Shown here: positions 896 through 18,208 of the stretch, one piece after another
Position numbering within the stretch: the first letter of the stretch is position 1
Layout of the letters: each line of letters opens with the position of its first letter
DNA from: a virus
Taxonomy: Duplodnaviria; Heunggongvirae; Uroviricota; Caudoviricetes
IMG/VR virus record: IMGVR_UViG_2721755712_000006
Reading direction: 5' to 3' (one strand)
Length of the DNA stretch: 19,786 nt
Program-made: the position numbers and the translations under genes
Notes under the pieces: model-generated
What the model saw: the letters and a program-made list of their open reading frames with translations, nothing else
The model's database searches: none
Told to the model about the DNA's origin: nothing

Positions 896-1183
896 TTACT
901 GTCTCTGGCAATCTTTATCGCGATAACGCCTGAAATACCCTCTCGCTTCCTCATCCATACCAAGAGCCGAATGAGTCCGCTTAACTGCCTGTCTTAAATC
1001 TCCGAATCTGTCTGTAGTTGCTGGTGGGCGTGCCGCCTTACGGATACATTCAGAGCGTCTGTTTGCTGCATGTTCACGTTCTTTATCGCCATCTGCCAGC
1101 ATCATGACTTCTGCCCATCGTGCGGCAGCTCTCCGGTATAGCCCTTTTGACTCCAGTTCTTCAGCTTTCCTGTCCCTTATCAT
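896..1183 (-). CDS. Small PerC-family-like regulator (phage/island-associated)
   Basis: 95-aa ORF; N-terminal IRDRKAEELESKGLYRRAAARWAEVM resembles PerC/Pch-type small regulators as I recall them; basic C-terminus. Not verified by search. Confidence 0.4.
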   Translation of the reverse strand: MIRDRKAEELESKGLYRRAAARWAEVMMLADGDKEREHAANRRSECIRKAARPPATTDRFGDLRQAVKRTHSALGMDEEARGYFRRYRDKDCQRQ

Positions 1184-1219
1184 TTCTGCCTCTCAGATTA
1201 TATAGATAAGCAAAAAGGT

Positions 1220-1340
1220 GTTGGTTCAGTTGGTTCAGTTGGTTCAATTTGTAAAGATCGTTGTTTTTATTGTGTTTTTTCTGAAATATTGAACCAACAT
1301 CAACTCATTTTGAACCAACACAGCCCAGCTCTGAACCAAC
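1220..1340. repeat. Iteron cluster A (crr/ori-like): 3 tandem GTTGGTTCA plus 3 inverted TGAACCAAC at 21-bp spacing
   Basis: GTTGGTTCA at 1220..1228, 1229..1237, 1238..1246; TGAACCAAC at 1290..1298, 1311..1319, 1332..1340. Confidence 0.7.
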
Positions 1341-1394
1341 AACACAGCGATAGCTTTGTGATTGGTCCGTTATTTTCTGGCTGATATTTGAGCG

Positions 1395-1425
1395 TATAAC
1401 AGTGTTATACAGTGGTATACTGTAT
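1395..1425 (+). promoter_or_regulatory. Operator-like repeats upstream of the 1443 ORF
   Basis: Tandem TATAACAGTG / TTATACAGTG followed by inverted repeat ATACAG-N7-CTGTAT, just upstream of the start codon. Confidence 0.3.
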
Positions 1426-1442
1426 GGATATTACTCACTGAT

Positions 1443-1883
1443 ATGGTCTTTGCAATGAGCAAATCTAATCTGGTCGCGTTCCGCATCCCATCTGAATTGC
1501 AGGATGAGTTTAATCGGTCTGTTCTCGCTTCTGGAGGGGATAAAACCTCCTGGCTTGTTGATGCGATTCGCATGAAGCTGGGACAGCCGGAAAAGTCTAT
1601 TGATTCACGAATGCTTGGGCTGGTGGAGCGCATGGAAAAAGCCGCTGCGTCGCTTATTGCCGGAAAGCCGAACATCCCACCAAAGCCATATAACGAAACG
1701 GCAGTTATAAAGATCATTGCCGATACCATCCGACAGGGATTTGATAATGGGCGTGTGATAGCGGAACGGCTCAATGAAGCAGGCTACCAAACAAAAGCTG
1801 GTAAAGCGTGGGATAAAGACATTTACAGCGCGTGGAAGCGTCAGGGTAACAATATTAAAAGAATCAATACGCTGCTTCAGTAA
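1443..1883 (+). CDS. Hypothetical DNA-binding protein with N-terminal ribbon-helix-helix-like segment
   Basis: 146-aa ORF (alternative ATG at 1455). N-terminus NLVAFRIPSELQDEFNRSV...WLVDAIRMKL has an RHH (CopG/Arc-like) pattern; C-terminal LNEAGYQTKAGKAWDKDIYSAWKR resembles a recombinase-type DNA-binding helix. No clear SD. Confidence 0.5.
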   Translation: MVFAMSKSNLVAFRIPSELQDEFNRSVLASGGDKTSWLVDAIRMKLGQPEKSIDSRMLGLVERMEKAAASLIAGKPNIPPKPYNETAVIKIIADTIRQGFDNGRVIAERLNEAGYQTKAGKAWDKDIYSAWKRQGNNIKRINTLLQ

Positions 1884-1912
1884 TTGATCAGTGTATAAAT
1901 GATATTTATCGC

Positions 1913-2890
1913 TCAATCGCTCCCTTTCCGCCCTTCAGCTACAGGGTCGTTGTCGGCGATAACAAAACCTAAGTCCTGAGAGAATCTCTCTCGTGGGAAT
2001 CCTTTAGCAGGTAAACCCATTGAATCATATCCACATCCGGGAACATTTGGTTTAGAGTCAATAAGGTCTGCAATTTGCCGAAGCCATGTTGATCCCGGAC
2101 CAAGTCGTTTAACTAAGTACCAGATAATACAGATCGCGCTAAAAATCCTCTCGCAACTCTCTGGATGGAGATTAAGTCCGTCAAAGTATTCATTATCCGG
2201 TACTGGAACTCGGGGATGCTTTCTATTCCATATTCTGGAATGGTGAGCGCAACGATTCCTTATGAGATTAAGGCACTTCAACCATTTTGCAAATGTCTGC
2301 TTATTATCAATGCCAAAACGACGTATAATTTTCCCCTGCATATGACCATTAAGCATCGCATAATATTTAGACATCTGACCAAAATCCCAGGTCTCCACCG
2401 CCACCCAAAATGGAATCTCCTTGCCTTGGCTTCGATGCCATTCAATACAGTCATCTCTGCTTTCGTCTAATTTTACTTTTTGCTTATACACCCAATGCTC
2501 GAAGGCAGATGAGAATTTTGGATTAATGTATTTTGATGACATGTAGGCAAGTGGATCATTGCGACCAACCTCATGCGCGATGACTGAACGAACATGAATC
2601 TCTATTCTTTCGATAGCATCAATCATCAAAAGACGCAGTTTTTTGTCAAAAAGATATAGATCGTACGTCTTCTCGAAACTGGTACCAGCAAGAAATCGGT
2701 CTGTTCTGTACGAAAGACCTTTATCTGTTGTCGCAATAATTCTTGATGGGTACCAAAAACCTGACAATCGATAATATCCAACCTGCGACAGCTTACGTAT
2801 CGCACGATTTCGATCATTGATAATCATGCCACGTTCAAGTAGCAATCCTAGCAATTCGTGATAGTCCTTATGAGGCTTTGCGGCAATCAT
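1913..2890 (-). CDS. Abi_2 family abortive infection protein (AbiD/AbiF-like)
   Basis: Contains the hallmark NRCAHHSRIWN motif plus YYRLSGFWYP near the N-terminus. ORF track starts at a GTG at 2935; ATG at 2890 (MIAAKPHKDYHELL...) fits family N-termini better. Neither start has a good SD. Confidence 0.7.
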   Translation of the reverse strand: MIAAKPHKDYHELLGLLLERGMIINDRNRAIRKLSQVGYYRLSGFWYPSRIIATTDKGLSYRTDRFLAGTSFEKTYDLYLFDKKLRLLMIDAIERIEIHVRSVIAHEVGRNDPLAYMSSKYINPKFSSAFEHWVYKQKVKLDESRDDCIEWHRSQGKEIPFWVAVETWDFGQMSKYYAMLNGHMQGKIIRRFGIDNKQTFAKWLKCLNLIRNRCAHHSRIWNRKHPRVPVPDNEYFDGLNLHPESCERIFSAICIIWYLVKRLGPGSTWLRQIADLIDSKPNVPGCGYDSMGLPAKGFPRERFSQDLGFVIADNDPVAEGRKGSD

Positions 2891-2986
2891 AGTGGCGAAA
2901 CAAAAGATAATAAAAGGCCCGACCGTGAAACTCACATGCCTGAAATCGGCGGCGGAGAAACAGAGGATCGGGCTCGGTTGCCTGTA

Positions 2987-3014
2987 ACTCTATCCGAAGT
3001 TATCCACATGTCAA
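2987..3014 (-). promoter_or_regulatory. Candidate sigma70 promoter for the Abi gene
   Basis: On the minus strand TTGACA (rc of 3009..3014), 16-nt spacer, TAGAGT (rc of 2987..2992), upstream of the Abi start. Confidence 0.25.
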
Positions 3015-3060
3015 TGCACAGTTACTTAGGAAACTAACATAGATACTATCATCACTCACG

Positions 3061-3083
3061 AAAAACCACTATATGTGGTTTTT
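3061..3083. terminator. Hairpin with flanking A/T runs (possible bidirectional intrinsic terminator)
   Basis: aaaaaccac-tatat-gtggttttt perfect 9-bp stem, followed by tattcat on the plus strand. Confidence 0.3.
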
Positions 3084-3358
3084 ATTCATATCGTTATCCA
3101 CTACAGGCTGTGTCAATAACTTTTACCTATTAATTGGGTAATTTCTACATTTTCCTATGCTGGCTAGTTTCTCTACTGAAAAGTTGGCACTCCTTAATCG
3201 CTTTTCGGTTAATACTATCGGTCTTCATATTGCCAGCAGCATACGCCATCCGATAATTTCGATGCTACGCGCGCGTACTTGTCGCAAAATATCAGGCAAA
3301 GGCCAGATTCAGAACGTCGTGATAACCACCAGCACAACATGAGATGTCATGTAACACG

Positions 3359-3366
3359 ATTTATCA
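3359..3366. repeat. IS1 target site duplication, left copy (ATTTATCA)
   Basis: Identical 8-mer directly abuts both IS1 ends (3359..3366 and 4135..4142). Confidence 0.7.
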
Positions 3367-3421
3367 GGTGATGCTGCCAACTTACTGATTTAGTGTATGA
3401 TGGTGTTTTTGAGGTGCTCCA

Positions 3422-3697
3422 GTGGCTTCTGTTTCTATCAGCTGTCCCTCCTGTTCAGCTACTGACGGGGTGGTGCGTAACGGCAAAAGCACCGCCGGAC
3501 ATCAGCGCTATCTCTGCTCTCACTGCCGTAAAACATGGCAACTGCAGTTCACTTACACCGCTTCTCAACCCGGTACGCACCAGAAAATCATTGATATGGC
3601 CATGAATGGCGTTGGATGCCGGGCAACTGCCCGCATTATGGGCGTTGGCCTCAACACGGTTTTACGTCACTTAAAAAACTCAGGCCGCAGTCGGTAA
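3422..3697 (+). CDS. insA: IS1 InsA
   Basis: 91-aa product [43 protein letters not shown]... matches IS1 InsA. Confidence 0.9.
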
Positions 3698-4119
3698 CCT
3701 CGCGCATACAACCGGGCAGTGATGTGATTGTCTGCGCGGAAATGGACGAACAGTGGGGCTACGTCGGTGCTAAATCACGTCAGCGCTGGCTGTTTTACGC
3801 GTATGACAGGATACGGAGGACAGTTGTGGCGCACGTTTTCGGTGAACGCACTCTGGCCACACTGGCGCGTCTTCTGAGCCTGCTGTCGGCCTTTGAGGTC
3901 GTGGTATGGATGACGGATGGCTGGCCGCTGTATGAATCACGCCTGAAGGGAAAGCTGCACGTTATCAGCAAGCGTTACACTCAGCGCATTGAGCGACATA
4001 ATCTGAATCTGAGACAACATCTGGCAAGGCTGGGACGGAAGTCACTGTCGTTCTCAAAATCGGTGGAGCTGCATGACAAGGTCATCGGGCATTATCTGAA
4101 CATAAAACACTATCAGTAA
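3616..4119 (+). CDS. insB: IS1 InsB (transposase InsAB' by -1 frameshift)
   Basis: 167-aa product [27 protein letters not shown]... matches IS1 InsB with several substitutions relative to the canonical sequence as I remember it. Confidence 0.85.
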
Positions 4120-4134
4120 GTTGGAGTCACTACC

Positions 4135-4142
4135 ATTTATCA
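4135..4142. repeat. IS1 target site duplication, right copy (ATTTATCA)
   Basis: See left copy. Confidence 0.7.
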
Positions 4143-4535
4143 CATCAGATACATGTGATTGGTGTACCCGCATAAAACATCGTCATAGCGCGTCCTGTGC
4201 GCATATACGCCGATAATCAACACATCACCACCACTCTGTCTCGTGTAGAGAACAGTTTCATGGTATCCCCCGCCATCGTGTGCGTACTGGTCGGACGTAG
4301 TTGCAAAATTTTTGCAACTGATACCCCTCGCGCGCGTACTGGTCACGAAATTGGTGTTTTGCTGTGGCAGTGATATCAGAAAAATCTTCCTGTTTCACAT
4401 AAAGCGGATATGCGCGTACTGTAACGGCCCCATCAACGGGGATCGGATTTGAAATCCCGACCCAAGCTATGTACCAAATGCCATGTCTTGGATATATGAT
4501 GATTGCCATTCTAAACAACGCTAAAGGGGGTTGGT

Positions 4536-5150
4536 GTGAGCAGAAAAGATACTAAAGAATTGCTAACTATCTGCATGGTGTACTTTTCAATTTATTTTTG
4601 TGCATACATGGTAGTCCCAGATGAGTTTGAACATGGCAGTATTATTTATTCCATAACATTCTATTTTTTAGAGCTAACACCAATTTTGGCTATCCTTTTG
4701 GCAATACATATTTATTTTTCCTTAAAAAAAGAATCGACTAATTGGGAGAAGGTATGGAGAGACAGAGGATTTCTAACATCACCTAAAGATGATGCATATG
4801 AGAGTGATTTTTCTGACTTTATAACAAACTACTACTCCAGCGAACAATTCAAAAATAGACTGTCTGATGTTTGGGAAACAGCAATGTATTCCATAGGGAT
4901 TATATTATTGATACTTACTGGTATCGCTCAATATGTTTTTAACATTGACTTATCATTAAATCCTGAAAATTTAATATCGCCATTGATTTTTGGTGAGATA
5001 TTGATCTTCTCATTCGGAATTTTCTTGAGTGTTGTTCTCTGCTCATTATGCAAACTACTGACTAACAGGTATCCAGGTGAAGCAAGGAGAGCAAGAAAGG
5101 CAAATCCATATTATCTTTTATTTCCTAATGGAGACAGCAGAGATATCTAA
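4536..5150 (+). CDS. AT-rich integral membrane protein (about 4 predicted TM helices), unknown function
   Basis: GTG start preceded by AAAGGGGG SD. Hydrophobic stretches near residues 10-25, 40-60, 115-135, 147-170 (by eye). Roughly 30% GC against ~50% neighbours. Convergent with the 701-aa gene; stops 18 bp apart. Confidence 0.6.
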   Translation: MSRKDTKELLTICMVYFSIYFCAYMVVPDEFEHGSIIYSITFYFLELTPILAILLAIHIYFSLKKESTNWEKVWRDRGFLTSPKDDAYESDFSDFITNYYSSEQFKNRLSDVWETAMYSIGIILLILTGIAQYVFNIDLSLNPENLISPLIFGEILIFSFGIFLSVVLCSLCKLLTNRYPGEARRARKANPYYLLFPNGDSRDI

Positions 5151-5168
5151 GCCATCCATGGCTACCAG

Positions 5169-7274
5169 TTATTGAGCTTCTTTTTGTGATGCCTGTGCGA
5201 CTCTGGTGAGCGATTGTGTGACCGTACTGATCGCTCTGTCATATGCTGTGCTACCTTTTGGCGTATTTGCCAGACGTAACAAGGCATTTCGTATAACAGG
5301 GCTTTCGTATGCCTTCGCTGCTCCGCCTACGGCACCAGCAGCAGGAACAACAAACGCAGCCGTTTTTAGCATCCCCGCTAATACTGCTGCGTTTATGATG
5401 CCACCACCAACTAACAATCCATAAAGCTGCTGACCATTTAAGTTTTGAACGTTCGCTTTTGCCGCGTGTCTTGTATCGTTGAGGTATTTAATAACGCCGT
5501 CCAGTTCCTTTCCATGTACGCCTTTAAAGAAAGTTGCTGATTGCTTCCTGTTCCGGTGTAACGCATTAATAAACTTCTCAACACTGATATTTCCAGACGG
5601 ATCAGTCGCCTTATCTACAGCATTCTGAACTATGGCTGCTCGTGCGTTTTGCCTACCATTGTCATCCAGAAGCCTGTAAAGCTGAGAACGTTCTGATGGG
5701 CTTTGGCTAAAAACGAGTTTTGTTACATCCTCAGGCGTGGCCTTGCCGCTGGCTATTGCCTTTTGAACGCGCGTTCTTCCCATCATGTCATTGAATTTAG
5801 ACCATGAGCGATCAACCCTTGCCATATTAATGGCTTCGTCTGCTCCAAGATTTTTGGCTACGGCTTTTTTCATATCCGCCGTATATGCCTTGTAGATAAT
5901 ATCGCTGGCTTTCTGGAGCGTATCTTTATCAACAGTGTCAGATGACGCCATAAATCGCTTTCGAAGATCGGTTCTGTTTTCCCTCGCCAGACGCAGGTCA
6001 TTTGGTCCGCTGGTGATATCGTCTTTAAATTGCTGCAAGACTTTTACCGCGGCTCTATCCTGAGATTTGCCCGGGCGGCTTAACACGGCAATCTGATTGT
6101 CGATAGCTTTTACCGTGTTTGAGAGATCGACAGGGGTATCCCCCATAGCGTCAATTATGCGGTTATATCGCTTTCCTGCTGCCTCAATGAATTTTTGTTG
6201 CCCTTTAGTCGCAGATTCATAAAGCTGTTTATCAGAAATGCCACCCAGACCATCGCTAAATGTTCTGACTAAATTTTCTCGTGCTTGTTGTTGATTCAGC
6301 CGATTCTTACCGGTTCCAAAAAAAGGAACTCTTTCGCCTAATGTCTGAGCCTGACTCTGCATAAAGGTTTTATCTTTCAGCATGTCACTGGTCATTAACG
6401 GCAGATTTCTTTCCGATGCAAAGTCGACAGCAGCCTTTGCTTCAGGCGACATATCACCACGAACAGCCCTCGAAACCGCACTCGCTGTATTTTCCAGCCC
6501 CTTACCAATACCACCAATGCCAGCAGAAATTACCGTTTGTAACGGATCAATATCTTCTCCACCAGCAAGGCTGGTGGCTCCCTGTAGTGCTAAATCTGTA
6601 GCTGCTGATTTTCCTATGGCACTAAGCACCGTTCCAGCCCTGCCCGCTGGTGTAAACGCCAACGCATTAGCAAGAAACGAGGTCAGGTCTTGCGGTGATA
6701 AACCCGGCTTGTTCAGGGCATAATCACCTGATGGCAGAGAAACGATAGTATTCCCCTTCTCATCCTGCCTTAATGTCGCCCCCATTCCCTGAAGAATCTT
6801 TTCCTGAGACGCGTCAGAGCCGAAAAGTTGAGACCATCCAGCCTTTAGGGCATCCATGCTTAGTGAGTTCAATTCTGGGGCAGAGGCGACATTTTGCAGT
6901 CTCTCCATCTCTGGAGTCATTCGGCTTTCGCCTGTTATAGCATCGCGCATCGCAGCCCCAAGACTGGCTCCCTGTTCTGCTGAACGCTCAAGCCCCTCTC
7001 TTTGCTGAGTAGCTAACTTTGCATACCCTGACGCAAGAGAATTATCAGATGATGTATGTTGAATATTTTGAGTTGCTGATTGGGATCGGTCTATTTCATT
7101 CGTTGATGGTAGTGGATAGGCAGCATAAAAAGCCTGCTTAGCCTGCTCTACACTTTCTCCGGCTTGCGGGGCCACGACTTCATTGAAGTATTGCTCCTGA
7201 GCCTGCGCTTTTTGTTCTGGTGCTAACGCCTGATACTGTGGAGAGGCGATAACATCTTTCCATGCTTTAGCCAT
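5169..7274 (-). CDS. Large hypothetical protein (701 aa), Ala/Gln/Gly/Ser-rich helical, C-terminal Gly/Ala-rich hydrophobic segment
   Basis: Long ORF; ATG overlaps the stop of the upstream gene (TAATG); GGGGTG SD. Hydrophobic segment LYGLLVGGGIINAAVLAGMLKTAAFVVPAAGAVGGAAKAY near residues 617-656. No family recognised. Confidence 0.7.
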   Translation of the reverse strand: MAKAWKDVIASPQYQALAPEQKAQAQEQYFNEVVAPQAGESVEQAKQAFYAAYPLPSTNEIDRSQSATQNIQHTSSDNSLASGYAKLATQQREGLERSAEQGASLGAAMRDAITGESRMTPEMERLQNVASAPELNSLSMDALKAGWSQLFGSDASQEKILQGMGATLRQDEKGNTIVSLPSGDYALNKPGLSPQDLTSFLANALAFTPAGRAGTVLSAIGKSAATDLALQGATSLAGGEDIDPLQTVISAGIGGIGKGLENTASAVSRAVRGDMSPEAKAAVDFASERNLPLMTSDMLKDKTFMQSQAQTLGERVPFFGTGKNRLNQQQARENLVRTFSDGLGGISDKQLYESATKGQQKFIEAAGKRYNRIIDAMGDTPVDLSNTVKAIDNQIAVLSRPGKSQDRAAVKVLQQFKDDITSGPNDLRLARENRTDLRKRFMASSDTVDKDTLQKASDIIYKAYTADMKKAVAKNLGADEAINMARVDRSWSKFNDMMGRTRVQKAIASGKATPEDVTKLVFSQSPSERSQLYRLLDDNGRQNARAAIVQNAVDKATDPSGNISVEKFINALHRNRKQSATFFKGVHGKELDGVIKYLNDTRHAAKANVQNLNGQQLYGLLVGGGIINAAVLAGMLKTAAFVVPAAGAVGGAAKAYESPVIRNALLRLANTPKGSTAYDRAISTVTQSLTRVAQASQKEAQ

Positions 7275-8740
7275 TAATCACCCCATAGTGAAGAAAAGTT
7301 ACTGCTGGCTGCTGGCTGTGATACCTGCTCAGATTGCGGCAATGTCTGCGACGAAGAAGCAGTTCCTCTGTCAACTGCTGAAATAACCCGCAAAGCATCA
7401 TAAGTTCGACCAGAAGCAGCTTTCAGCGAATTGAACTGGTTTTCCATCTTCCGGCGCTTGGTATCAATGGTTTTTGTGGAATCACCAGGCTGAGGGAAAT
7501 ACATTTGATAATATTTGGACATTTCAGCTGGTAGGATAGATGCCCCTGTTTCCTGACGGAGTATTGCCATTATTGCGTCATTAGCATTAACAACGTATTG
7601 CTGCTCTGCTGGGCTGAGCGTTAAGTTAGCCAGCGTCCCATTACCCAAAGCATTATTAATGATCGCCACTCGCTGTGGGCTAAGCTGGTCTTTCAGTGTA
7701 TCTATTGAATCAAGAGCATCCCTAACCCTGTATGCAAATCCAGCAGCTTTTTTAGCCCCTTCTGGCGACTTTTCCATGATCTTTTGGGCTGTTGGCAAAG
7801 CTATTGGACGAAACCCATCTCCAGATATTGGCTGGTTTAGTTTTCCCTGCTCTTCACTTCCGTCTGTGTAGTATTTTGTGACAGTGCCATCATCGTTTTC
7901 TCTAACACTCATTAATTTTTTGGCGTTTGTATTAATTCCAGCCGCTGCCGCAAATGCCGCCGCCCCCTCTGGATCCGCCTTTAACATTTGAGCGTACTGA
8001 TTGTAATTCTGCATTGCTGCTGTTGGTGCATATGCTGACGTTAACGCATTTGCTCGGCTAATATCCTGCCCTCTCGCCTGAAGTGCTTCGCCAGCCTGAT
8101 TGCTGCGGATTGTCTCTGCCAACTTGCCACGCTCAATATCCCGACCTTCCATTTGATCTTTGATATCGAAATACTTCTCATGACCGAGAGAAAACAGCGC
8201 CAGATTACCTGCGAAATGCTGGAAGCCCTGCGGGTCATTAACCTGCATTTCAGCAATAGTTTCTGGAGGGATACCTAAACGACGCATCTCCTGCTCATTA
8301 TCCATCATGAACCTGCCAAATGCGCCCTGACCAAGCGATGAGGCTACCTGTGCTTTGAGCGCCAGATTGCCATAATCATCCCTTTGAGCATCATCGACAT
8401 AACTCATCCCTTTACGGACTTCCTCAAACTCTTCTGGGAATGCTGTAATAAGATTACGCATCTGCTCCCTGTCACCGGACGCATAAGCATCTGCATAAGC
8501 TTTCTGGAATGCCGCTTTACGCTCCTGCTGTTGCTGCTGCTTATAAATATCAGCAACGCCAGCCAGACCACGAAGACCTGTCAGAGCAACGTTATTTGCA
8601 CCTGAGCGAGCCAGTTCATTGTTTTCGCGGATCAGACCAAGCGTTGCGTTAATGTCGCTTGCCTTTGGCGCATTCTCATTTTGCGTACCGATGCCAGCCA
8701 GAAAACCACCAGAATTAATACCCTGTTGCCACGTAGCCAT
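7274..8740 (-). CDS. Large hypothetical protein (~488 aa from ATG at 8740; 492 aa from GTG at 8752), low-complexity Ala/Gln-rich
   Basis: Long ORF translationally coupled to the 701-aa gene; poly-Gln run and Ala-rich tracts; no catalytic motif recognised. Confidence 0.7.
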   Translation of the reverse strand: MATWQQGINSGGFLAGIGTQNENAPKASDINATLGLIRENNELARSGANNVALTGLRGLAGVADIYKQQQQQERKAAFQKAYADAYASGDREQMRNLITAFPEEFEEVRKGMSYVDDAQRDDYGNLALKAQVASSLGQGAFGRFMMDNEQEMRRLGIPPETIAEMQVNDPQGFQHFAGNLALFSLGHEKYFDIKDQMEGRDIERGKLAETIRSNQAGEALQARGQDISRANALTSAYAPTAAMQNYNQYAQMLKADPEGAAAFAAAAGINTNAKKLMSVRENDDGTVTKYYTDGSEEQGKLNQPISGDGFRPIALPTAQKIMEKSPEGAKKAAGFAYRVRDALDSIDTLKDQLSPQRVAIINNALGNGTLANLTLSPAEQQYVVNANDAIMAILRQETGASILPAEMSKYYQMYFPQPGDSTKTIDTKRRKMENQFNSLKAASGRTYDALRVISAVDRGTASSSQTLPQSEQVSQPAASSNFSSLWGD

Positions 8741-8758
8741 TGATTTACCCACGTCCAG

Positions 8759-8917
8759 TTAAAGTGTAAGCCAGCGCCTTATCCATTAATCCCCGAGCAA
8801 TTTCGTGGATCGTTGGCGCAACTCCTACCTCTGATTTTTTACGCTGCTCCTCCTGAATTTTCTTTATCGCTTCCATTTGCTTCTCACTTATCAATACTGG
8901 CTTTACTGAAATAGCCA
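8759..8917 (-). CDS. Small protein (52 aa), possibly ribbon-helix-helix DNA-binding; first gene of the cargo operon
   Basis: Not in the ORF track (under 60 aa). ATG at 8917 with strong SD AAGGGGG; product MAISVKPVLISEKQMEAIKKIQEEQRKKSEVGVAPTIHEIARGLMDKALAYT; stop 6 nt before the next gene's GTG. Confidence 0.45.
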
Positions 8918-9011
8918 TAACGCCCCCTTAGAACTGTATAAAACAACAGTCATTATAGTTTCATAAAACGCAACATTCATCATTGTGATTGCAAAATATG
9001 AAACAAATAGC

Positions 9012-9044
9012 ACAAAAAAATGCCACCGTTCAGTAGCTGGTGGC
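9012..9044 (-). terminator. Intrinsic terminator for the 152-aa gene
   Basis: On the minus strand: GCCACC-11 nt loop-GGTGGC (rc of 9022..9044) followed by a T7 run (rc of 9014..9020). Confidence 0.5.
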
Positions 9045-9098
9045 ATCGTTCTGTATGTCAGGTTTTGACAGTTTTTTTATGGACTCTAAAAACTATAT

Positions 9099-9557
9099 TT
9101 ATGGAGTCGCATTACTCTTCATGGCGTGAGCTTTCCTGTTCTCTCTTTGTTCCTGGTTCCATGGATAAGTGTAATTGCCACCAGCAAAGACCATATTGAT
9201 TTTGTGAGGAACCATTAAAGCGATATCAGCACTCATGTCACTGAATGAAACACAGTGCAGACGTTCAAGCCATTTGTATGCTGCTGCCGCTTCTCCCCAC
9301 AAATTAATCCCTGCAAGTTCAACAATATCTCTGATGGAGCAGATATCAACCATCCCGTTAACGCCTGTAAAACGGCGTTTAAAGTCGCCAAGATACTTTC
9401 TGAAAAGAGTTGCTTTCATTGGTTCAGAAAGGTCTATGTATGGGAACACAACCACATCAAGCAGCATCTCCCTTCTGTTGTTCATCGGTATTACAGATGG
9501 CAAATCGGATACTTTGCCAAATACATGATGAAAAGCCTTTGCGATTATCTTCATCAT
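9099..9557 (-). CDS. Hypothetical protein (~152 aa), orphan cargo gene next to the iteron array
   Basis: ORF MMKIIAKAFHHVFGKVSDLP...; GGGAGA SD upstream of tandem ATGs; own terminator downstream. No family recognised. Confidence 0.5.
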   Translation of the reverse strand: MMKIIAKAFHHVFGKVSDLPSVIPMNNRREMLLDVVVFPYIDLSEPMKATLFRKYLGDFKRRFTGVNGMVDICSIRDIVELAGINLWGEAAAAYKWLERLHCVSFSDMSADIALMVPHKINMVFAGGNYTYPWNQEQRENRKAHAMKSNATP

Positions 9558-9643
9558 CAATCTCCCACTGAAACCAGTGATGTGGTGTTCAGATTTCGTA
9601 AAACACTCTCTAATGCCAGCCAGATGTTGTGCTCATCAATTCA

Positions 9644-9754
9644 GTCACGTTGTGTTGGTTCAAAATGCCGTGTTGTTGGTTCAGTGTTGGTTCAATAAAA
9701 AGAATAAAATCCTTATAAAACAATACTCTTTACAAATTGAACCAACTGAACCAA
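9644..9754. repeat. Iteron cluster B (putative replication origin downstream of the primase gene)
   Basis: GTTGGTTCA at 9644..9652, 9665..9673, 9676..9684; three tandem TGAACCAAC at 9728..9754. Segment 9717..9761 is the exact reverse complement of 1213..1257. Confidence 0.7.
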
Positions 9755-9789
9755 CTGAACCAACACCTTTTCTACGCACATGAAGAAGC

Positions 9790-12546
9790 TCATTCTTCAG
9801 ATGAGTTGTAATCTCCTGGCTGGTAATTGAGTACATAAACGTTTATTTGTCGTCCCTGAATACGTGGTGATTTTCTTTGGTATCCACGACCGCTGTTTGG
9901 TGGGGTTAGCATCCCGGCTTTTTTCAACACTTCAGCAAACTGTTTTGCGTTGAAACCACATGCGATCTCCTTTTCAAATGTGGCCGGGAATGTGTAGAAA
10001 ATCATTGGGCTTTCGTCATGTTCTCCACGCTGACGGTATCCGGCTAAATCTTTGATGGGCAAATCTGCCGGGCTGTATGGAAATGGTGCAAAACGGCTAA
10101 GCCCATAGGCATTAAGAAATGCCTCCGTTTGTTCAATAATCTGCTGATGCTCTTTGTTACCTGTGCCGAACTCGCGCAACCATGCGTTATAGCTGTGCTG
10201 TATCGCATCACGGCATGTCTGAGCATCCCAGCCTGTTACAACCTCGCCTAACAACAATGCGGCCTCCAGAATGGCAAATCGCGCGGCTACACGGTGAACC
10301 TGCTCACCATAATCGGATGGGATCAGGCTTCTCCATCTGCTTTCGCAGTCACGAACAGTTTTAATAGCCTGTTGCTGGTGGTCTGCCAGCCATTTAATCC
10401 ACTCACGCCCGGACGCGCCGTGGTGATGCTGGTAAGCGTCTTTCAGTGCGTCTGCGTGCTGTTTTCCGTTCTGGTAATCGTGAAAGCGTACTGCTTTACT
10501 CAACGGAATATTCAGCAGTCGCACCATTTGCCCGGCTTTGGTTTTTCGCCCGGAAGTAGCGATAAATGTTTCTAAATCCATTTCTCCGGTGCTGATTGCC
10601 ACTGTACGCCAGCGTTTTAGATCCCGGTTTCCACCATCTTTAGCGCCTTGCAGTTTCCCTACACCGTTAAATAACGCATAGGCAGACTGTGAAACACTGA
10701 CAGGATCAGCGCCCTGACCAACTTCATCAAGCGGCATTAGTCCGTCATTGTGGGCGGCAGCTTCATTTGCCAGCCCCAGCGCGGTTCCGTACCACGTCAG
10801 CCGCAGTAAATCAGGGTTGCCGTATAAGCTGCTCGCCACGTTTGCCGTGGTGGTCTTACCTGCGCTCGACTGCTCATAGAAATGAATGCCGAACCCGTCA
10901 GCGCCCACCAGCCCAATCAATGGCGCTGCCAGTGCTGCGCCGATCCCGGTCATCATTGAATAGTTACCAAAGGCCAGACGCGCCACGTTATCACGCCAGC
11001 TTTTCGCGCTCCCTGAGACGGTATATCCGGCTGCGGCTGAGCTTCTCCCGCTGAACAGCACAGGATTTTCAGGTGTTCCGATGATTTCCCCATCAGGCAT
11101 GATGTACGCTCCGCATTGCCAGCCAGTGGCATGAGCAACACGCCACAATTCACGAGAGCCACTGCGTTGTAGCCAGTCTGCCAGTATTGCTCTGAGGCTG
11201 CTTTTGGTCGTGACATTTACCCCACCAGCTTTAAGTGTGCGCCATCCTTCACGTTCACCAATATCAGCCAGTGGAATGGCAGCGGTTGTCGGCGTTTCAG
11301 AACCAAACGACAGCCAGCGAAGAATGAGATACTGGTCTTTATCGTCTCTGCCAGTACCGATAACGCTTAACGGAGAACATAACCAGCTTTCGTTATTGAT
11401 GATTTCTCCACTCTGGCTGTCAGCTCTCGGAGATACCCAATAAATACCATCCTCGCGGCTTTCTATTCTTGGTTTCAGTGGGTCGGTATCCATAACCTTA
11501 AAATCGCTTCCCTCAATGGTCTGTGGCTCCTGTTTCACGCCATTACCCTGTGGTTGGTACATTGACTTATTGAACGCTTCTGTGGCGCATTTAATGCCGT
11601 GTTTTTGGTGGTAATCATTCCAGTCTGCTTTGTGATCTGTCGGGGGTAATGCCACCCATCCAGAAACAGATAAAGCTGCCTTTTCTGCTGCTATTCTCCC
11701 CGTGTTTTGTCTTCCTTCGCTGTGGTCGTTATCCGCAGCAATGATGATTTGTGCTGAAGGAAATTTATCCCGCAGTACCTGGGCGACATATAACAGGTTC
11801 CCGGCATCAATCGCCGCCACTGTCAGCGCCTCTGGACGAATTAAATGGGCAGATAATGCCGTTGCCAGCCCTTCTGCGATTAAGATGCTCTGTGTTGTTT
11901 CTGGTGCGTTTATGGCGTGATATGCCCCCCGCTTTGCTGAACCTGTCAGGAGTCTTTTTTCACCATGTGAGGTAATAGTCTGTGCTGCTGTTACTGCGCC
12001 GGATTTATCCACCAGCGCCAGCAACAGAGATCCATCGGGCAACACGGGGAATGTAAAATCACCTACCCCTTTCGCAACCAGATAATCAGATTTGCCGTTT
12101 ACAGCCTTTCTGCGCATGTCATCAAACTGACGGGAAAACGTATCCCGTCTTTGTTGTTCGTCCTTCTCTGCCCTTTTCAGGCGCTCCTGTTCGCGTCGCT
12201 GGCGCTCGGTTTCCAGTTGTTCCCGTTTCTGGCTGGTGGCTTCTGGTGTTTCCGTTGTCCGGTAATCAATACCCAGAACATCAGCGGCAAGAAGCGCCGC
12301 CTCTGTTGTGTCGCAGTTATTTACGCGTTTAATTAAATCCAGCCCATCACCAGCGCCGCACTGATTACAGATGAAGCTACCGCGCCCGTTGTCATCGAAC
12401 CGGAATCGATCTTTGCCCCCACATGCAGGGCAGGGAGCATGACGGCGCGGAGAGTCAGGGACATTTATGTTCAGGCAGCCCAGCACATGAGGCCAGTTGT
12501 TTTCAGACGCACTGATAACCTGACGGATAAGATCAATGTTTCGCAT
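9790..12546 (-). CDS. P4 alpha-like primase-helicase (Zn ribbon, TOPRIM, P-loop NTPase)
   Basis: 918 aa. Cys4 ribbon CPACGG...FICNQCG; TOPRIM-like IIIAADNDH with upstream ILIAEGLATALS; Walker A SSAGKTTT. Confidence 0.9.
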   Translation of the reverse strand: MRNIDLIRQVISASENNWPHVLGCLNINVPDSPRRHAPCPACGGKDRFRFDDNGRGSFICNQCGAGDGLDLIKRVNNCDTTEAALLAADVLGIDYRTTETPEATSQKREQLETERQRREQERLKRAEKDEQQRRDTFSRQFDDMRRKAVNGKSDYLVAKGVGDFTFPVLPDGSLLLALVDKSGAVTAAQTITSHGEKRLLTGSAKRGAYHAINAPETTQSILIAEGLATALSAHLIRPEALTVAAIDAGNLLYVAQVLRDKFPSAQIIIAADNDHSEGRQNTGRIAAEKAALSVSGWVALPPTDHKADWNDYHQKHGIKCATEAFNKSMYQPQGNGVKQEPQTIEGSDFKVMDTDPLKPRIESREDGIYWVSPRADSQSGEIINNESWLCSPLSVIGTGRDDKDQYLILRWLSFGSETPTTAAIPLADIGEREGWRTLKAGGVNVTTKSSLRAILADWLQRSGSRELWRVAHATGWQCGAYIMPDGEIIGTPENPVLFSGRSSAAAGYTVSGSAKSWRDNVARLAFGNYSMMTGIGAALAAPLIGLVGADGFGIHFYEQSSAGKTTTANVASSLYGNPDLLRLTWYGTALGLANEAAAHNDGLMPLDEVGQGADPVSVSQSAYALFNGVGKLQGAKDGGNRDLKRWRTVAISTGEMDLETFIATSGRKTKAGQMVRLLNIPLSKAVRFHDYQNGKQHADALKDAYQHHHGASGREWIKWLADHQQQAIKTVRDCESRWRSLIPSDYGEQVHRVAARFAILEAALLLGEVVTGWDAQTCRDAIQHSYNAWLREFGTGNKEHQQIIEQTEAFLNAYGLSRFAPFPYSPADLPIKDLAGYRQRGEHDESPMIFYTFPATFEKEIACGFNAKQFAEVLKKAGMLTPPNSGRGYQRKSPRIQGRQINVYVLNYQPGDYNSSEE

Positions 12547-12558
12547 TCTGGCCCCCGT

Positions 12559-13161
12559 TTAGTGCGTCACTGGTGCTTCTGGGATGCCGTTTTCGTTTAG
12601 TTCGGCAATAAAGCTGTTGTGAAGATCGGCAAGCACTTCTCGCCCAAACGAAGTGAGTGTTCCCTGTTCGACATCGAACATGTTGCTGTAAAAAATGATG
12701 GCATTCTTTGTTCCGACATCAACACCATATTTCTCGATCATTGCGCCCTCAATGTTGTTTGCCATAGCGAGGCGCTCTGCTACTGGATACAGCGGCATGG
12801 CGACGATGCCATTGGAATAAACAGAAACCACGGAATGATTGCCACTGTCATCAATAATGCTGACGGTGCCGTTTCCCTTTCTCATTTCATTGATGAATGC
12901 TGTTGCTATCAGCCAGCGCCACATAATCACGTGATGCTGTGATGTGTAATCGAAATATCCCTGGTTGCCGCCACTGGCAATAGCGAGATGTATAAACATG
13001 CCTTCATCTGGTTTATCGTCATAATCCCCGGCATCCAGACGATTTACGGCATCAATATATGAGACGGTCTCAACGCGTTCTGTCATGCCATCGTTGCTGC
13101 GGTGCATGATGTTTACGCCGTCAGGCGTTGCTTCTGCATGGAAGGTTAAGAAATTATTCAT
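12559..13161 (-). CDS. Hypothetical protein (~200 aa) immediately upstream of the primase
   Basis: ATG at 13161 (MNNFLTFHAEATPDG...) with GAGG SD, overlapping the stop of the upstream gene by 8 nt; the ORF track's longer 235-aa form begins inside the upstream gene. Confidence 0.55.
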   Translation of the reverse strand: MNNFLTFHAEATPDGVNIMHRSNDGMTERVETVSYIDAVNRLDAGDYDDKPDEGMFIHLAIASGGNQGYFDYTSQHHVIMWRWLIATAFINEMRKGNGTVSIIDDSGNHSVVSVYSNGIVAMPLYPVAERLAMANNIEGAMIEKYGVDVGTKNAIIFYSNMFDVEQGTLTSFGREVLADLHNSFIAELNENGIPEAPVTH

Positions 13162-13375
13162 GTTTCGCCTCGCCTGAATGATTCTGTAACTCATATTTGC
13201 CCAACAATTCGTCTGCTTCCTGAATAGCTTCTGGTACGCCATTGAGCAGTGACATAACCGCGCCAATCATTAACTTGTCTCTGTTGCTGGGGCTGGCCCC
13301 TTCAAGCCAGAACCCTAAAACAGTCTGAACCTGTTCGATGCGACATTGCGCTTCAATGAGCTGGATGTTGGTCAT
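13154..13375 (-). CDS. Small hypothetical protein (73 aa)
   Basis: ORF in an overlapping-stop/start chain (ATGA overlap at 13372..13375). Confidence 0.45.
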   Translation of the reverse strand: MTNIQLIEAQCRIEQVQTVLGFWLEGASPSNRDKLMIGAVMSLLNGVPEAIQEADELLGKYELQNHSGEAKHE

Positions 13376-13635
13376 TTCGCACTCTCCACATCGATTAAAC
13401 TGATATCTATCAGGGAGGTAACTTTTTGTAGCCAGCTATTGATTACTGTCGCCTGTTCCCCTCCCACCGAGGGAATAATCTCATTCATCACATGAACCAG
13501 ACCTGTGCGCGCTCTGGTAAGCCGTTCAGTCGCGCAATCTGCGGGAGTGAATGTGTCTGGATATGGCTCTTCGCGCCCCAGCAATGATTCAATTTCCAGC
13601 TCACACGGATGACGATAAATTAAGTTGATATTCAT
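13372..13635 (-). CDS. Small hypothetical protein (87 aa)
   Basis: ORF in the same coupled chain (ATGA overlap at 13632..13635). Confidence 0.45.
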   Translation of the reverse strand: MNINLIYRHPCELEIESLLGREEPYPDTFTPADCATERLTRARTGLVHVMNEIIPSVGGEQATVINSWLQKVTSLIDISLIDVESAK

Positions 13636-13826
13636 TTTTCACCCCCAAGAATTACCAGCTCGGCACGGGCATCGTTAACCAAAGATGAGCACGCTTTAAT
13701 CGCATCCACGACATCAGCAGCGTCCATTTCTTCAGCCGAAAGACTGACAGCAACCAGGACAGCCGCTGCTTGCTCGATTAATTGAAGTGCGGACGTAAGG
13801 CGAGGGGTATTAATTGAGTTATTCAT
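13632..13826 (-). CDS. Small hypothetical protein (64 aa)
   Basis: ORF in the same coupled chain; overlaps upstream gene by 8 nt. Confidence 0.4.
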   Translation of the reverse strand: MNNSINTPRLTSALQLIEQAAAVLVAVSLSAEEMDAADVVDAIKACSSLVNDARAELVILGGEK

Positions 13827-14037
13827 TGGTTGCCCCCGTTTTTACTGGCATTTCGCCACCTTCCAGCAGGAAATGAACGTCACGAACGGCGAGATCCAAT
13901 ATCGCGAGTAACGCCTTCAGTCTTTCGTCTCGTGAGGGAGAGTTGCTCACCAGAATGTCGTTAATCACTTCTGTCAGTGTGATGATCTGGCTTGTGCGTT
14001 CGAGGGGATCCATATGCACATCGTAGGTTTTAATCAT
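13819..14037 (-). CDS. Small hypothetical protein (72 aa)
   Basis: ATG at 14037 (MIKTYDVHMDPLER...) with GGAGGTGG SD; this is the 3' part of the long 13819..14886 track ORF. Confidence 0.4.
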   Translation of the reverse strand: MIKTYDVHMDPLERTSQIITLTEVINDILVSNSPSRDERLKALLAILDLAVRDVHFLLEGGEMPVKTGATNE

Positions 14038-14224
14038 GTGCCACCTCCATGCGGATACGACCAGCAAAAAAGCAGACGTGATCGCGCACCAGAGAACGGC
14101 GAGCATCGCGTTCAGACTCGGCAGCAATATGATGAATTTTGGCGGTAATTGTCGGGCAATCGCGGCGAACTGCGGCGATAATCCAGATAAATTGCGGTTT
14201 TTGGGTAGGGGTAGTAGCCAGCAT
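14030..14224 (-). CDS. Small hypothetical protein (64 aa), first ORF after the structured leader
   Basis: ATG at 14224 (MLATTPTQKPQF...) preceded by GGAGG, which lies inside a predicted stem. Confidence 0.35.
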   Translation of the reverse strand: MLATTPTQKPQFIWIIAAVRRDCPTITAKIHHIAAESERDARRSLVRDHVCFFAGRIRMEVAHD

Positions 14225-14470
14225 GTGGCAGCCTCCATTCGATAGCATGTAACGCTACCACCGGAAACGCCAATTTCGCTGGTGGTAGCCCAGACAGGGT
14301 TGGCGTAACCGGCTCGAATGGATACCGGCGCTTCCGAAGAAGCCCCTGCCTGAGCCACCATTGATTGACAAAGGCGCTGGATTATACACCAACGCCCAAA
14401 AAATGGGTGAGTCAGACCTACGACATAAAAAAAGACGCTCGGCGCGTCATATGTCGCCATTCGATTTACC
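14225..14470 (-). promoter_or_regulatory. Structured non-coding leader with three mutually complementary 8-9 nt elements (P4 immunity-like topology)
   Basis: Plus-strand TCCATTCGA at 14234..14242, its reverse complement TCGAATGGA at 14314..14322, and a direct copy CCATTCGAT at 14457..14465; nested inner inverted repeat GCTACCACC (14254..14262) / GGTGGTAGC (14281..14289). Confidence 0.35.
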
Positions 14471-14524
14471 AGGACGCCAATCCCGGCACCCGTTTTATGA
14501 GGTGCCTTATAACCATAAACCGTG

Positions 14525-14551
14525 TTGCCGCATAACGGCAAGCTCTTTTTT
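14525..14551 (+). terminator. Hairpin plus T6 on the plus strand (possible terminator or part of the leader structure)
   Basis: ttgccg-cataa-cggcaa, then gctc, then tttttt; no obvious plus-strand gene upstream, so its role is uncertain. Confidence 0.25.
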
Positions 14552-14879
14552 ATGGACTCCGAAAACTCACTATTGGAAGAACCAGAAGCACAGTACATCG
14601 CGCTCATTTCGTTAACGTCACGCGCGTGGACGAATGTTTTTGTGGAGTCACTACACGAGCAGAACAGGTCATCTACGACCAGAAATTCTCTGGCGCAGCC
14701 GCTGACCTTCTCAACGCTAACATCATCGACCGTGATTTCTGACATAGTTAAGGCATCCGCTCCTACCACCAGCAAATGATAAACTTTGCTTGTATCTGCT
14801 GTATTAATGCCTGACTTTGCTGTCATATTGCTGGATTTTGGCGACATGCCAGCCAGTGAAAATGTCTTCTTCTGGGCGG

Positions 14880-15062
14880 TTAGCATTTGTTAACCTCCGC
14901 GAACTCCTTCATGAAACGTGCCAGCGGTTGTACGCATGGCGATTGATACCCGTCGCGATAAAACGTCACTCGGTTGTGAGACACGCTTTCGACAGTAACG
15001 AGTGCTCCGTGGGCATCTTTGTAGCGTTTTTGAGGTTGTGGTGTTCCTGTCGGCTTAAACAT
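14880..15062 (-). CDS. Small hypothetical protein (60 aa)
   Basis: ATG at 15062 (MFKPTGTPQPQKRYKDAHG...) with GGAGG SD 6 nt upstream; 8-nt overlap with the antirepressor gene stop. Confidence 0.4.
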   Translation of the reverse strand: MFKPTGTPQPQKRYKDAHGALVTVESVSHNRVTFYRDGYQSPCVQPLARFMKEFAEVNKC

Positions 15063-15888
15063 GGACCGCCTCCAGACGCTTAGCGAGCCAGCGTTGCGAC
15101 AGGCGGGTGAGTTCTCCTTTGCGCTGCTCATATTCCATGCCCATATCAATTAACGTGATATTGGTGCTTTCGAGATATGAGAGGTGCTCAAGCTGTTCTG
15201 CGTTCATATGGTCGCGAGGTTCGCCAGAATAGCCATTTATCCGCGCCCACTGCTTAGCAGTTAGCCCACCAAGAACGATACGAGAAATCATATTGCTCTC
15301 GTTTGTGTAGTGGTGTTGCTGCGTCGTTTTCCCCATCTCGGCACGGGCCATGTTCAGCGCATCGCACATTGGCTTAAAGTTGTTTGCGGCACTGATACGG
15401 GCTTTTAGCTGGCGACGATAGCGGGCGGCGATTTCAGGCACGCTACGCTGTAATTCTTTCTCGCACTGGATGAAATAACGGCGGATAGCGCGACCCTGAT
15501 CATTGCGTTCGATCATTGCCAGTTCTTTCGCCATTCCGACACTTAACAGATAGTCTTTGCCGGGTCTGCCAGAGTGCTTAATCTTGCTGTAAGCCGCGCC
15601 ATTCGGGCTTTTCCCCAAATTTGGGGAAATTGTTTTATGGACTGAGTAATCGTGCCCAATGGTGAAGTCATATTCAGAGATGCGATCAGTGATCCATGTA
15701 GAGAAGTCTTTTCCCACGCCCAACGCTTTGTGTAACGCTTTTGCGCTAACAATATTGGTTTCACGCCCACCTATATGACCAGGAATAACCGGGACAATTG
15801 CGGCAAATTCATTACCGTTAATTGTGCCCAGAGAGGCGTTCAGATGAGGGGCAGCCTCAGAAATTAATCTGCTTTTTTCGATGTTCAT
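15055..15888 (-). CDS. AntA/AntB-type phage antirepressor-like protein
   Basis: 277 aa; segments SAKALHKALGVGKDFSTWITDRISEYDF and KDYLLSVGMAKELAMIERNDQGRAIRRYFIQCEKEL resemble the AntA domain as I recall it; GGAG SD. Confidence 0.65.
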   Translation of the reverse strand: MNIEKSRLISEAAPHLNASLGTINGNEFAAIVPVIPGHIGGRETNIVSAKALHKALGVGKDFSTWITDRISEYDFTIGHDYSVHKTISPNLGKSPNGAAYSKIKHSGRPGKDYLLSVGMAKELAMIERNDQGRAIRRYFIQCEKELQRSVPEIAARYRRQLKARISAANNFKPMCDALNMARAEMGKTTQQHHYTNESNMISRIVLGGLTAKQWARINGYSGEPRDHMNAEQLEHLSYLESTNITLIDMGMEYEQRKGELTRLSQRWLAKRLEAVHV

Positions 15889-15900
15889 TTTCAGTCTCCG

Positions 15901-16332: not shown

Positions 16333-16535
16333 CAGGCCACCTCGTCTCTAGATTCTAATATACACTTCTCAATCCATTCATCTATTTCAGACTCAACAAA
16401 AGCAATTGCCCGACTTCCAATTTTTACCTGTTTAGGGAACCTCCCCTGACTAATAAGACGATAAATCCATGCTTTGCTATAACCAGTTCGCCTTTGAACT
16501 TCAGAGAGACGAATTAATGAATTGTAATTAGCCAT
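16332..16535 (-). CDS. alpA: AlpA-family phage regulatory / excisionase-like HTH protein
   Basis: 67 aa; LIRLSEVQRRTGYSKAWIYRLISQGRFPKQVKIGSRAIAFVESEIDEWI is a typical AlpA pattern. Confidence 0.85.
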   Translation of the reverse strand: MANYNSLIRLSEVQRRTGYSKAWIYRLISQGRFPKQVKIGSRAIAFVESEIDEWIEKCILESRDEVA

Positions 16536-18177: not shown

Positions 18178-18208
18178 TTGGGGGTACCTCCACTAAACCG
18201 AACAGCAA

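Follow-up and report, generated by a model that had tools for sequence, protein, structure and literature searches.

How the cytoplasmic membrane is opened for DNA is the least understood ejection step of short-tailed phages, and one stretch of DNA raises the question of which protein element might take part in it. The stretch, the 19,786-nucleotide record IMGVR_UViG_2721755712_000006 (referred to as the window, at its full length), encodes a 701-amino-acid (aa) protein with an apolar segment near its C-terminus. In this study, we found that the protein belongs by its matches to the P22 gp16 family of DNA-ejection proteins, and that the segment is an element delimited by an invariant Gly, ~32-38 apolar residues and an invariant YES motif, which coincides with published sites of escape from the exclusion protein SieA. 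The reading we favor, to which we assign a probability of roughly 55%, is that gp16, once ejected, engages the cytoplasmic membrane and assembles there through this conserved apolar hairpin, which is also the surface targeted by SieA. A membrane role of the family has already been discussed in the literature; the precise limits of the element, its coincidence with the SieA sites and its satellite context are the points that deserve attention here. The positions of the features are collected in Table 1.

A preliminary description of this locus had pointed to an apolar Gly/Ala stretch of ~40 residues and had guessed at a phage ejection protein, and both points were confirmed. In a search against PHROGs, residues 19-700 matched phrog_770, 'DNA transfer protein' (1e-162). 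Using tblastn, residues about 260-683 were aligned to P22 gene 16 with 30.8% identity (1e-38), and ORF13 of E. coli phage N7 was matched at 67.5% identity. The name given by the Prokaryotic Genome Annotation Pipeline (PGAP) is 'P22-gp16 family phage DNA ejection protein'. All homologs, close and distant, bear the precomputed annotation PF26808 (Phage_P22_gp16); the local search of Pfam-A and NCBIfam gave no match for the 701-aa protein, and the PF26808 label comes from the precomputed annotations only. An exhaustive homolog search returned 1400 representatives (50% identity) at E<=1e-3, and a 95%-identical cluster comprised 2417 member sequences. These results indicate that the 701-aa protein is, as judged from its homologs, an ordinary member of a known family of ejection proteins. 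In P22, the only phage for which this was described, gp16 is packaged in virions, is ejected ahead of the DNA and is needed for DNA delivery (PMC10883804). A tape-measure protein had also been suggested in the preliminary description. This alternative is inapplicable because the gene lies in a podovirus-type ejection module, with gp20 and sieA genes as neighbors and no tail genes. A sequence search of the PDB with the 701-aa protein gave noise only (E ~0.8), and the PDB copy that was searched held no solved structure of the family. Two database proteins from public assemblies look like fusions and are probably frameshift or assembly artefacts: P0004 (1019 aa) joins gp20 to gp16 (PF16928 plus PF26808), and P0116 (818 aa) contains primase domains, yet its gp16 match has 100% identity over 43% of the query.

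Residues 617-656, LYGLLVGGGIINAAVLAGMLKTAAFVVPAAGAVGGAAKAY, were confirmed by translation to be encoded exactly by positions 5307..5426 of the minus strand. Gly and Ala make up 47.5% of this segment, compared to 21.8% of the entire protein. In a Kyte-Doolittle analysis with a 19-residue window, values above 1.0 were reached only in the segment, with a peak of 1.79, and the mean of the whole protein was -0.42. The protein had been called otherwise hydrophilic; this holds in that the segment is its only strongly apolar stretch, with the reservation that a second, weaker Gly/Ala stretch is found at residues ~197-268. The segment contains two charged residues, K637, which is the sole internal charge, and K654. 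Its 40-residue mean hydropathy was matched by 34 of 5000 residue shuffles (p ~0.007), a statistic that concerns a single sequence, and conservation is the stronger evidence for the segment. The segment had further been described as glycine-zipper-like. When the pattern (G/A/S)xxxGxxx(G/S/T) was used, two zipper-like motifs were found (at 630 and 647) together with two GxxxG motifs (at 619 and 647). Among the variant-A homologs, A630-G634-T638 and G619/G623 are conserved. The motif count was equalled by 43% of 20000 composition-preserving shuffles of the segment (P ~0.4) and is no higher than the composition predicts. The helical hydrophobic moment of the segment was 0.03-0.09, indicating that it is not amphipathic. 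An amphipathic surface helix, or a helix lining a channel or lumen, was rejected because this moment is near zero.

We then come to the conservation of the element across the family, which counts among the evidence for the favored reading. The statistics were obtained with 107 family representatives that were less than 50% identical to each other, and with alignments of 51-106 diverse members. An apolar stretch between the Gly of the PTGQ motif and the YES motif was found in every branch of the family. G614, Y656, E657 and R662 were invariant, corresponding to G532, Y565, E566 and R571 of P22 gp16 in alignments of 102-106 sequences, and S658 and G650 were nearly so. The C-terminal boundary motif was also recovered by a regular expression in 109 of 151 scanned sequences. 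The median length of the apolar stretch was 32 aa (interquartile range 29-33). It held 0-2 charges in 103 of the 107 representatives, and its mean Kyte-Doolittle hydropathy was 1.0 (family median 1.01). It was within the top 1% of hydrophobic windows of its own protein in 81% of the representatives and within the top 5% in 98%. Its composition was 19.5% Gly, 23% Ala, 8.6% Thr and 12% Leu, and Pro was present in 87% of the segments. Internal charges were concentrated in the middle of the segment, at a relative position of 0.3-0.6, and the two flanks had net charges of +1.2 and +2.1. The central charges and the apolar arms fit two short helices with a polar turn. Taken together, an apolar stretch rich in Gly, Ala and Thr between an invariant Gly and an invariant YES motif is a hallmark of the family.

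The version in the window, designated as variant A, is the longest and most hydrophobic type, with 38 aa, a mean hydropathy of 1.42 and K637 as the single internal charge. Two unrelated-looking segment cassettes, A and B, occur inside proteins that are otherwise 65-75% identical. Compared to close homologs, the identity was 0.39-0.49 over residues 601-660 and 0.7-0.87 in the flanks, which marks the segment as a local hotspot of divergence. On the DNA, the region 5250..5470 (residues about 601-675) is a local hotspot of recombination or divergence. Such cassette-like evolution is as expected if the element is a contact surface in an exclusion arms race. No variant-A C-terminus with more than 47% identity was found among the deposited phage genomes in the collection searched; variant-A gp16 was present in complete P22-like prophages of Citrobacter and Yersinia.

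Previous work on P22 showed that escape from SieA requires changes in gp20 (residues 338-350) and the gp16 change P546S, with G532W added for full escape, and that K+ release by the triple escape mutant is slowed also when SieA is absent (PMC10883804). The conservation of G532 was already remarked on in that report (PMC10883804). In our alignments, P22 G532 corresponds to the invariant boundary residue G614, and P22 P546 corresponds to about A633, inside the apolar stretch. Both gp16 escape sites therefore appear to be tied to the conserved apolar element. The same paper describes a P22 periplasmic conduit that forms mostly without gp16, and for this reason gp16 is placed at the inner membrane (PMC10883804). 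P22 gp16 is reported there to associate with membranes and to act at the cytoplasmic membrane (PMC10883804, citing Perez 2009 and Wang 2019), and the purified protein reportedly helps DNA to enter liposomes besides binding membranes (PMC10883804). In a review, putative C-terminal transmembrane (TM) helices were noted in all of the gp16-like homologs that it covered (PMC8954989).

From these points, the following mechanism can be proposed. Weak hydrophobicity and small residues would keep gp16 soluble in the virion and allow it to travel along the portal and tail in a partly unfolded state. The ejected gp16 would then reach the cytoplasmic membrane where the gp20 tube ends, and several copies may expose the hairpin there. 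The hairpins would partition into the bilayer and pack helix to helix, and the packed hairpins may form or anchor an inner-membrane opening for DNA. SieA, an exclusion protein of the inner membrane, would interfere with this same hairpin surface.

Several observations weigh against this proposal, and most of them concern how transmembrane-like the segment is. Hydropathy was assessed with rough, additive scales (Kyte-Doolittle with 19 residues, Hessa dG and Wimley-White octanol), and the TM helices of the neighboring SieA-like protein were used as a yardstick; Eisenberg thresholds were dropped, as the normalized scale misclassified even these helices. The Kyte-Doolittle maximum was 1.79 for the gp16 segment and 2.5-2.6 for the SieA TM helices. 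The Hessa dG was +2.6 kcal/mol for the segment compared to -0.8 to -1.3 kcal/mol for the SieA helices, and the Wimley-White octanol values were -1.4 and -12 to -16 kcal/mol, respectively. Arm 1, with ~20 residues, gave Hessa values of +1.2 to +4.5 kcal/mol and octanol values of -1.4 to -2 kcal/mol, and in arm 2 just 16 residues separate K637 from K654. On these rough scales, the segment did not offer the two stretches of at least about 18-20 residues with favorable insertion energy that define a constitutive TM hairpin. Elsewhere in the family the arms are typically ~12-16 residues long, often with Asp or Glu at the center, and the segment of P22 itself has three charges and a mean hydropathy of 0.72. 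In addition, P22 gp16 without residues 476-609, which lacks the segment region, reportedly retains membrane binding in vitro (PMC10883804), and in the view of the authors of the SieA study, membrane association is probably unaffected by the escape mutations (PMC10883804). These results suggest that the segment 617-656 is not a constitutive TM hairpin and is at most a conditional one. A conditional rather than a constitutive hairpin is to be expected, because gp16 must stay soluble inside the capsid. The preliminary description had proposed membrane insertion. The part of this claim that stands is the reported membrane association of the P22 gp16 family; the hydrophobicity of the segment is well below that of TM helices, and insertion by this particular segment is plausible and unproven.

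The same low hydrophobicity is what would be expected if the segment were a protein-protein packing element, acting as an interface of the gp16 oligomer or connecting gp16 to the C-terminal part of gp20. Assembly would then be blocked by SieA, and lipid contact would lie elsewhere, for example in the N-terminal Gly/Ala-rich region. We regard this explanation as the main rival of the favored reading, though a rather doubtful one. The sub-TM hydrophobicity, the short arms, the common central acidic residues and the conserved small residues of variant A are all consistent with it. The small residues conserved among variant-A homologs are G619, GGG623-625, A633-G634 and G650-G651. Paired changes in gp16 and gp20 (338-350) are needed for SieA escape (PMC10883804), and Sf6 gp16 and Sf6 gp20 function in P22 only when supplied jointly (PMC10461980, PMC10883804). 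The P22 truncation lacking 476-609, which binds membranes, retains the N-terminal Gly/Ala region (PMC10883804). Residues 197-268 of the protein in the window (P22 34-189) are a candidate for an alternative membrane- or partner-binding region. However, the segment is uniformly apolar and has no single packing face (moment ~0.03-0.09), and the small residues of arm 2 are not confined to one face of the helix (resultant 0.09). The net-positive flanks and the polar center suit a membrane hairpin, SieA is itself integral to the inner membrane, and K+ efflux is slowed in the escape mutants. The packing and membrane readings overlap and do not exclude each other, since a membrane pore built of several subunits would need packing as well as insertion.

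The structure of the protein was predicted with AlphaFold2 (AF2) on a 102-sequence alignment, and the mean predicted local distance difference test (pLDDT) value of the model was 79. The helical core at residues 270-610 was mostly above 90. Over residues 611-660, the values in blocks of 10 residues were 62/48/47/66/89. Helices were predicted at 614-622 and 629-636, both with low confidence and with a loop between them, and at 639-656. A buried core helix of a soluble fold, which the preliminary description had set against membrane insertion, was not seen with confidence in the first half of the segment (611-640, pLDDT 47-62); in the second half, residues 641-656 were modelled as a helix with values from 66 to 89. 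The confidence of the arm 2 helix (639-656) climbed from 47 to 89, and this helix continued into the conserved C-terminal helices. In the AF2 model of P22 gp16, residues 528-550 were below 50 and were followed by a helix at 548-565 with values of 63-81. Residues 197-268 were below 50, and residues 34-189 of P22 gp16 form a comparable region of low confidence. The likeness to pore-forming toxin domains that had been suggested was not reproduced: a fold search with the AF2 model found no significant neighbor and no resemblance to such domains.

The low pLDDT values could also mean that the segment is a flexible, low-complexity hinge, which would serve unfolding and threading through the portal and tail channel and would bind nothing specifically. 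The values below 50 for residues 623-639 and for P22 528-550, and the Gly/Ala-rich composition, agree with this, and no other part of the C-terminal half diverges as fast as the segment, which occurs in two variants that look unrelated. Ejection proteins have been termed refolding 'conformational gymnasts' (PMC8954989). A plain linker would nevertheless tolerate charged or polar residues, whereas charge exclusion and hydrophobic character were retained in 98% of the 107 representatives. The tightly held length (29-33), the invariant boundaries, the specific phenotypes of point mutants and the ratio of nonsynonymous to synonymous substitution rates (dN/dS) of 0.11 likewise oppose a hinge of this kind, which we consider very unlikely.

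In the near-identical strains E70 and PEC011, PGAP calls the gp16 gene a pseudogene 'missing C-terminus', which ends at about residue 605, just before the segment. These partial calls lie at L003 16683..18498 and L008 13287..15102, and the counterpart of the missing part in the window is about 5169..5459. The reading frame was found to be open through the YES...LLRLANTPKGS motif in the window, in E67 and in PEC011. The call thus looks like an annotation artefact, and we conjecture that the divergent variant-A cassette was its cause. Together with the lack of other virion genes in the island, the partial call could be taken to mean that the composition of the segment arose by chance, or that the segment belongs to a pseudogene in decay. 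This explanation is effectively refuted. Compared with the copy in the island of strain E67, the dN/dS was 0.155 for the gene and 0.114 for residues 601-660, which indicates purifying selection. The frame is intact, the 95%-identical cluster has 2417 members, the segment also occurs in complete prophages, and the shuffle result (34/5000) stands against a chance patch. The remnant reading was therefore rejected on the intact frame, the conservation and the purifying selection.

The favored reading, that the hairpin is a conditional membrane and SieA-contact element of gp16, concerns a gene that lies in an island. The window is a stretch of E. coli chromosome with 100% identity to strain E70. 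On the minus strand, the island contains, in order, genes for an integrase, an AlpA-type helix-turn-helix (HTH) regulator, AntA, DUF4222, Ash, a TOPRIM-DUF927 primase, two small open reading frames (ORFs), gp20 and gp16. Past gp16 lie a SieA-like gene, an IS1 element that is absent from E70, AbiD and PerC. No capsid, tail or lysis genes were found in the island with Pfam, PHROGs and the annotation. By its gene content and site (integrase, AlpA-type regulator and primase at a tRNA gene, without structural genes), the island classifies as an EcCIMP1-like phage-inducible chromosomal island (PICI). EcCIMP1 is a PICI of E. coli MP1 and is mobilized by the P22-like phage Kapi1 (PMC11773190). In the paper on EcCIMP1, 'DNA transfer' and DUF2824 genes were pointed out downstream of the primase, and a role in packaging was suggested for them (PMC11773190).

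We compared related island loci (L008, L009, L010, L012 and L007). A related island of strain PEC011, at a different chromosomal site, carries gp14-like and gp7-like genes, gp20 and this gp16. A Pectobacterium island has a small ORF, gp20 and gp16, the same layout as in the window, and an Enterobacterales island has gp16 alone. The ejection genes in the related islands lie downstream of the primase, and the E. coli islands occupy two different integration sites. The pair of gp20 and gp16 was present in 299 of 5426 complete E. coli genomes. From these gene contents, modules of ejection proteins appear to be a recurrent and mosaic feature of this island lineage. Intact, purifying-selected ejection genes in capsid-less islands across genera suggest that satellites may tune DNA delivery, and not packaging alone. 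As a speculation that we consider quite unlikely, the ejection genes would be working cargo of satellites that depend on a P22-type helper. The island's own gp20 and gp16 would be loaded into helper-built particles, with the fast-evolving hairpin, to which the SieA-escape mutations map, setting delivery into cells under SieA-type protection such as helper lysogens, or the island proteins would poison the helper ejectosome. In that case, variant A would be no passive phage remnant but an allele that evades exclusion or interferes.

Table 1. Features of the window, the island and the 701-aa protein (strand left empty where not given).
Feature	Position	Strand	Basis or remark
701-aa P22 gp16-family DNA-ejection ('DNA transfer'/'injection') protein	5169..7274	-	ORF, PHROGs, tblastn
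Apolar Gly/Ala-rich segment, residues 617-656 of the 701-aa ORF	5307..5426	-	exact match of coordinates and sequence
Arm 1 with N-terminal boundary, G614-Q615 ('PTGQ' motif), then L617-L636	5367..5435	-	alignments, AF2
K637, single internal charge, predicted turn between arms	5364..5366	-	K-T-A-A conserved in variant-A homologs across genera
Arm 2, T638-A655, with conserved P644 and G650-G651	5310..5363	-	AF2 helix 639-656; G650 at least 90% conserved in the family
C-terminal boundary motif, Y656-E657-S658 ... R662 ... LLRLANTPKGS	5250..5309	-	invariant residues; pLDDT ~89-93
Second, weaker Gly/Ala-rich region, residues ~197-268	6471..6686	-	AF2 pLDDT <50; maximum 19-residue Kyte-Doolittle value 0.93
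N-terminal mosaic module, residues 1-56, HK620-type gp16	7107..7274	-	tblastn, AF2
gp20-type ejection protein, 488 aa from the ATG at 8740	7274..8740	-	PF16928 Inj_translocase, 5.5e-84; phrog_917, 9e-143
204-aa SieA-like multi-pass membrane protein	4536..5150	+	convergent with the gp16 gene, as sieA in P22
AbiD/Abi_2 abortive-infection protein	1913..2935	-	PADLOC AbiD, 8e-58; Pfam Abi_2, 2e-52
IS1-family transposase fragment	3616..4119		NF033558, 5.6e-43
Island, PerC to tRNA-Thr	896..18418		~17 kb; EcCIMP1-like PICI at thrW
tRNA-Thr(CGT), beside proA	18343..18418		island integration site

The other genes of the ejection module resemble those of P22 in their arrangement. The stop codon of gp20 overlaps the start codon of gp16 by one base, likewise in P22, and the P22 gene order 20-16-sieA is retained. 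The gp20 homolog was 55-57% identical to P22 and N7 gp20 over its first 234-239 residues only (P22: 55%, first 239 aa), and its C-terminal half was unmatched in tblastn with P22 gp20 and N7 gp20. In P22, the C-terminal half of gp20 holds the SieA-escape sites (residues 338-350). The SieA-like protein and P22 SieA share 29% identity across 108 aa (pairwise E 8e-8), a stretch that includes the RYPGEA motif. It matched the SieA-like phrog_7745 (4e-4), and its maximum hydropathy with the 19-residue window was 2.47. PGAP labels the SieA-like gene 'hypothetical' only and PADLOC missed it; run on the gp16, gp20 and SieA-like proteins, PADLOC gave no match. In a complete P22-like prophage of Citrobacter (L004), variant-A gp16 is likewise followed by a 204-aa gene. 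No homolog or remnant of gp7 or gp14 was found in the 19,786-nucleotide window; the 153-aa ORF at 9099..9560 matches neither. A promoter and terminator scan of positions 4100-9900 gave nothing above shuffle expectation. At the other end of gp16, residues 1-56 were 74-75% identical to the 'DNA transfer protein' of HK620 and of vB_EcoP-611R6, which are otherwise unrelated proteins, and these residues were modelled confidently as helical (pLDDT 88-96).

Other observations concern the cargo of the island. The AbiD gene lies in a variable region between gene 16 and PerC, where related islands hold ImmA/IrrE-type and other genes. Between AbiD and the SieA-like gene, at about 3350..4130, the window has ~776 bp extra compared to strain E70, consistent with an IS1 insertion. 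An 87-aa ORF at 13372..13635 on the minus strand is named 'nicotinic acetylcholine receptor subunit beta' by RefSeq in E70 (WP_200986729.1), which is almost certainly a propagated misannotation.

The closest comparison for the protein is P22 gp16 itself. The two proteins are homologous over residues about 260-683 (31% identity) and share the 20-16-sieA order with the 20/16 overlap, the invariant G...YES brackets around the apolar stretch, and the AF2 pattern, in which the helical core is modelled with confidence and the first half of the segment is left unplaced. In contrast, the protein in the window is 92 aa longer and has an HK620-like N-terminal module. Its segment has 38 aa and not 29, with an internal charge of 1 and not 3 and a mean hydropathy of 1.42 compared to 0.72, and the gene lies in a satellite-type island, whereas that of P22 lies in a phage. 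ORF13 of phage N7 and the 'injection proteins' of Salmonella and Citrobacter prophages (variant B) have the same architecture and 65-75% identity overall, but they carry the unrelated-looking apolar sequence TGQLMAGPAALASMLNPIAAKAVAIGAGVGLAGRAYES instead of the variant-A segment.

Beyond the P22 group, colicin-type and other alpha-helical pore-forming toxins have an Ala/Gly-rich, uncharged hairpin of ~35-40 residues in a soluble protein, which inserts conditionally into membranes. The segment is similar to such a hairpin in its length, in its Ala/Gly-rich and uncharged character, and in its soluble carrier protein. T7 gp16, the inner-membrane component of the T7 ejectosome, is alike in its position in an ejection operon and in its proposed role, but it has 1318 aa and a transglycosylase domain, and no similarity of sequence or fold was detected here. 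T7 gp16 is soluble when purified, and its putative TM regions are thought to refold into the inner membrane (PMC8954989).

At the level of the island, EcCIMP1 occupies the same site, thrW between proA and yagU, and has the same backbone of int, AlpA-type HTH, AntA, DUF4222, Ash, TOPRIM-DUF927 primase and PerC, with ejection genes downstream of the primase. It differs in carrying gp14-like (DUF2824), gp7-like and gp20-like genes and, in the gp16 position, a 906-aa transglycosylase-type protein, whereas the island in the window has only gp20 and a PF26808-type gp16, plus the SieA-like and AbiD genes. Although the 906-aa protein of EcCIMP1 belongs to another sequence type, it too contains a Gly-rich apolar run, comparable to the segment, at ~100 aa before the C-terminus.

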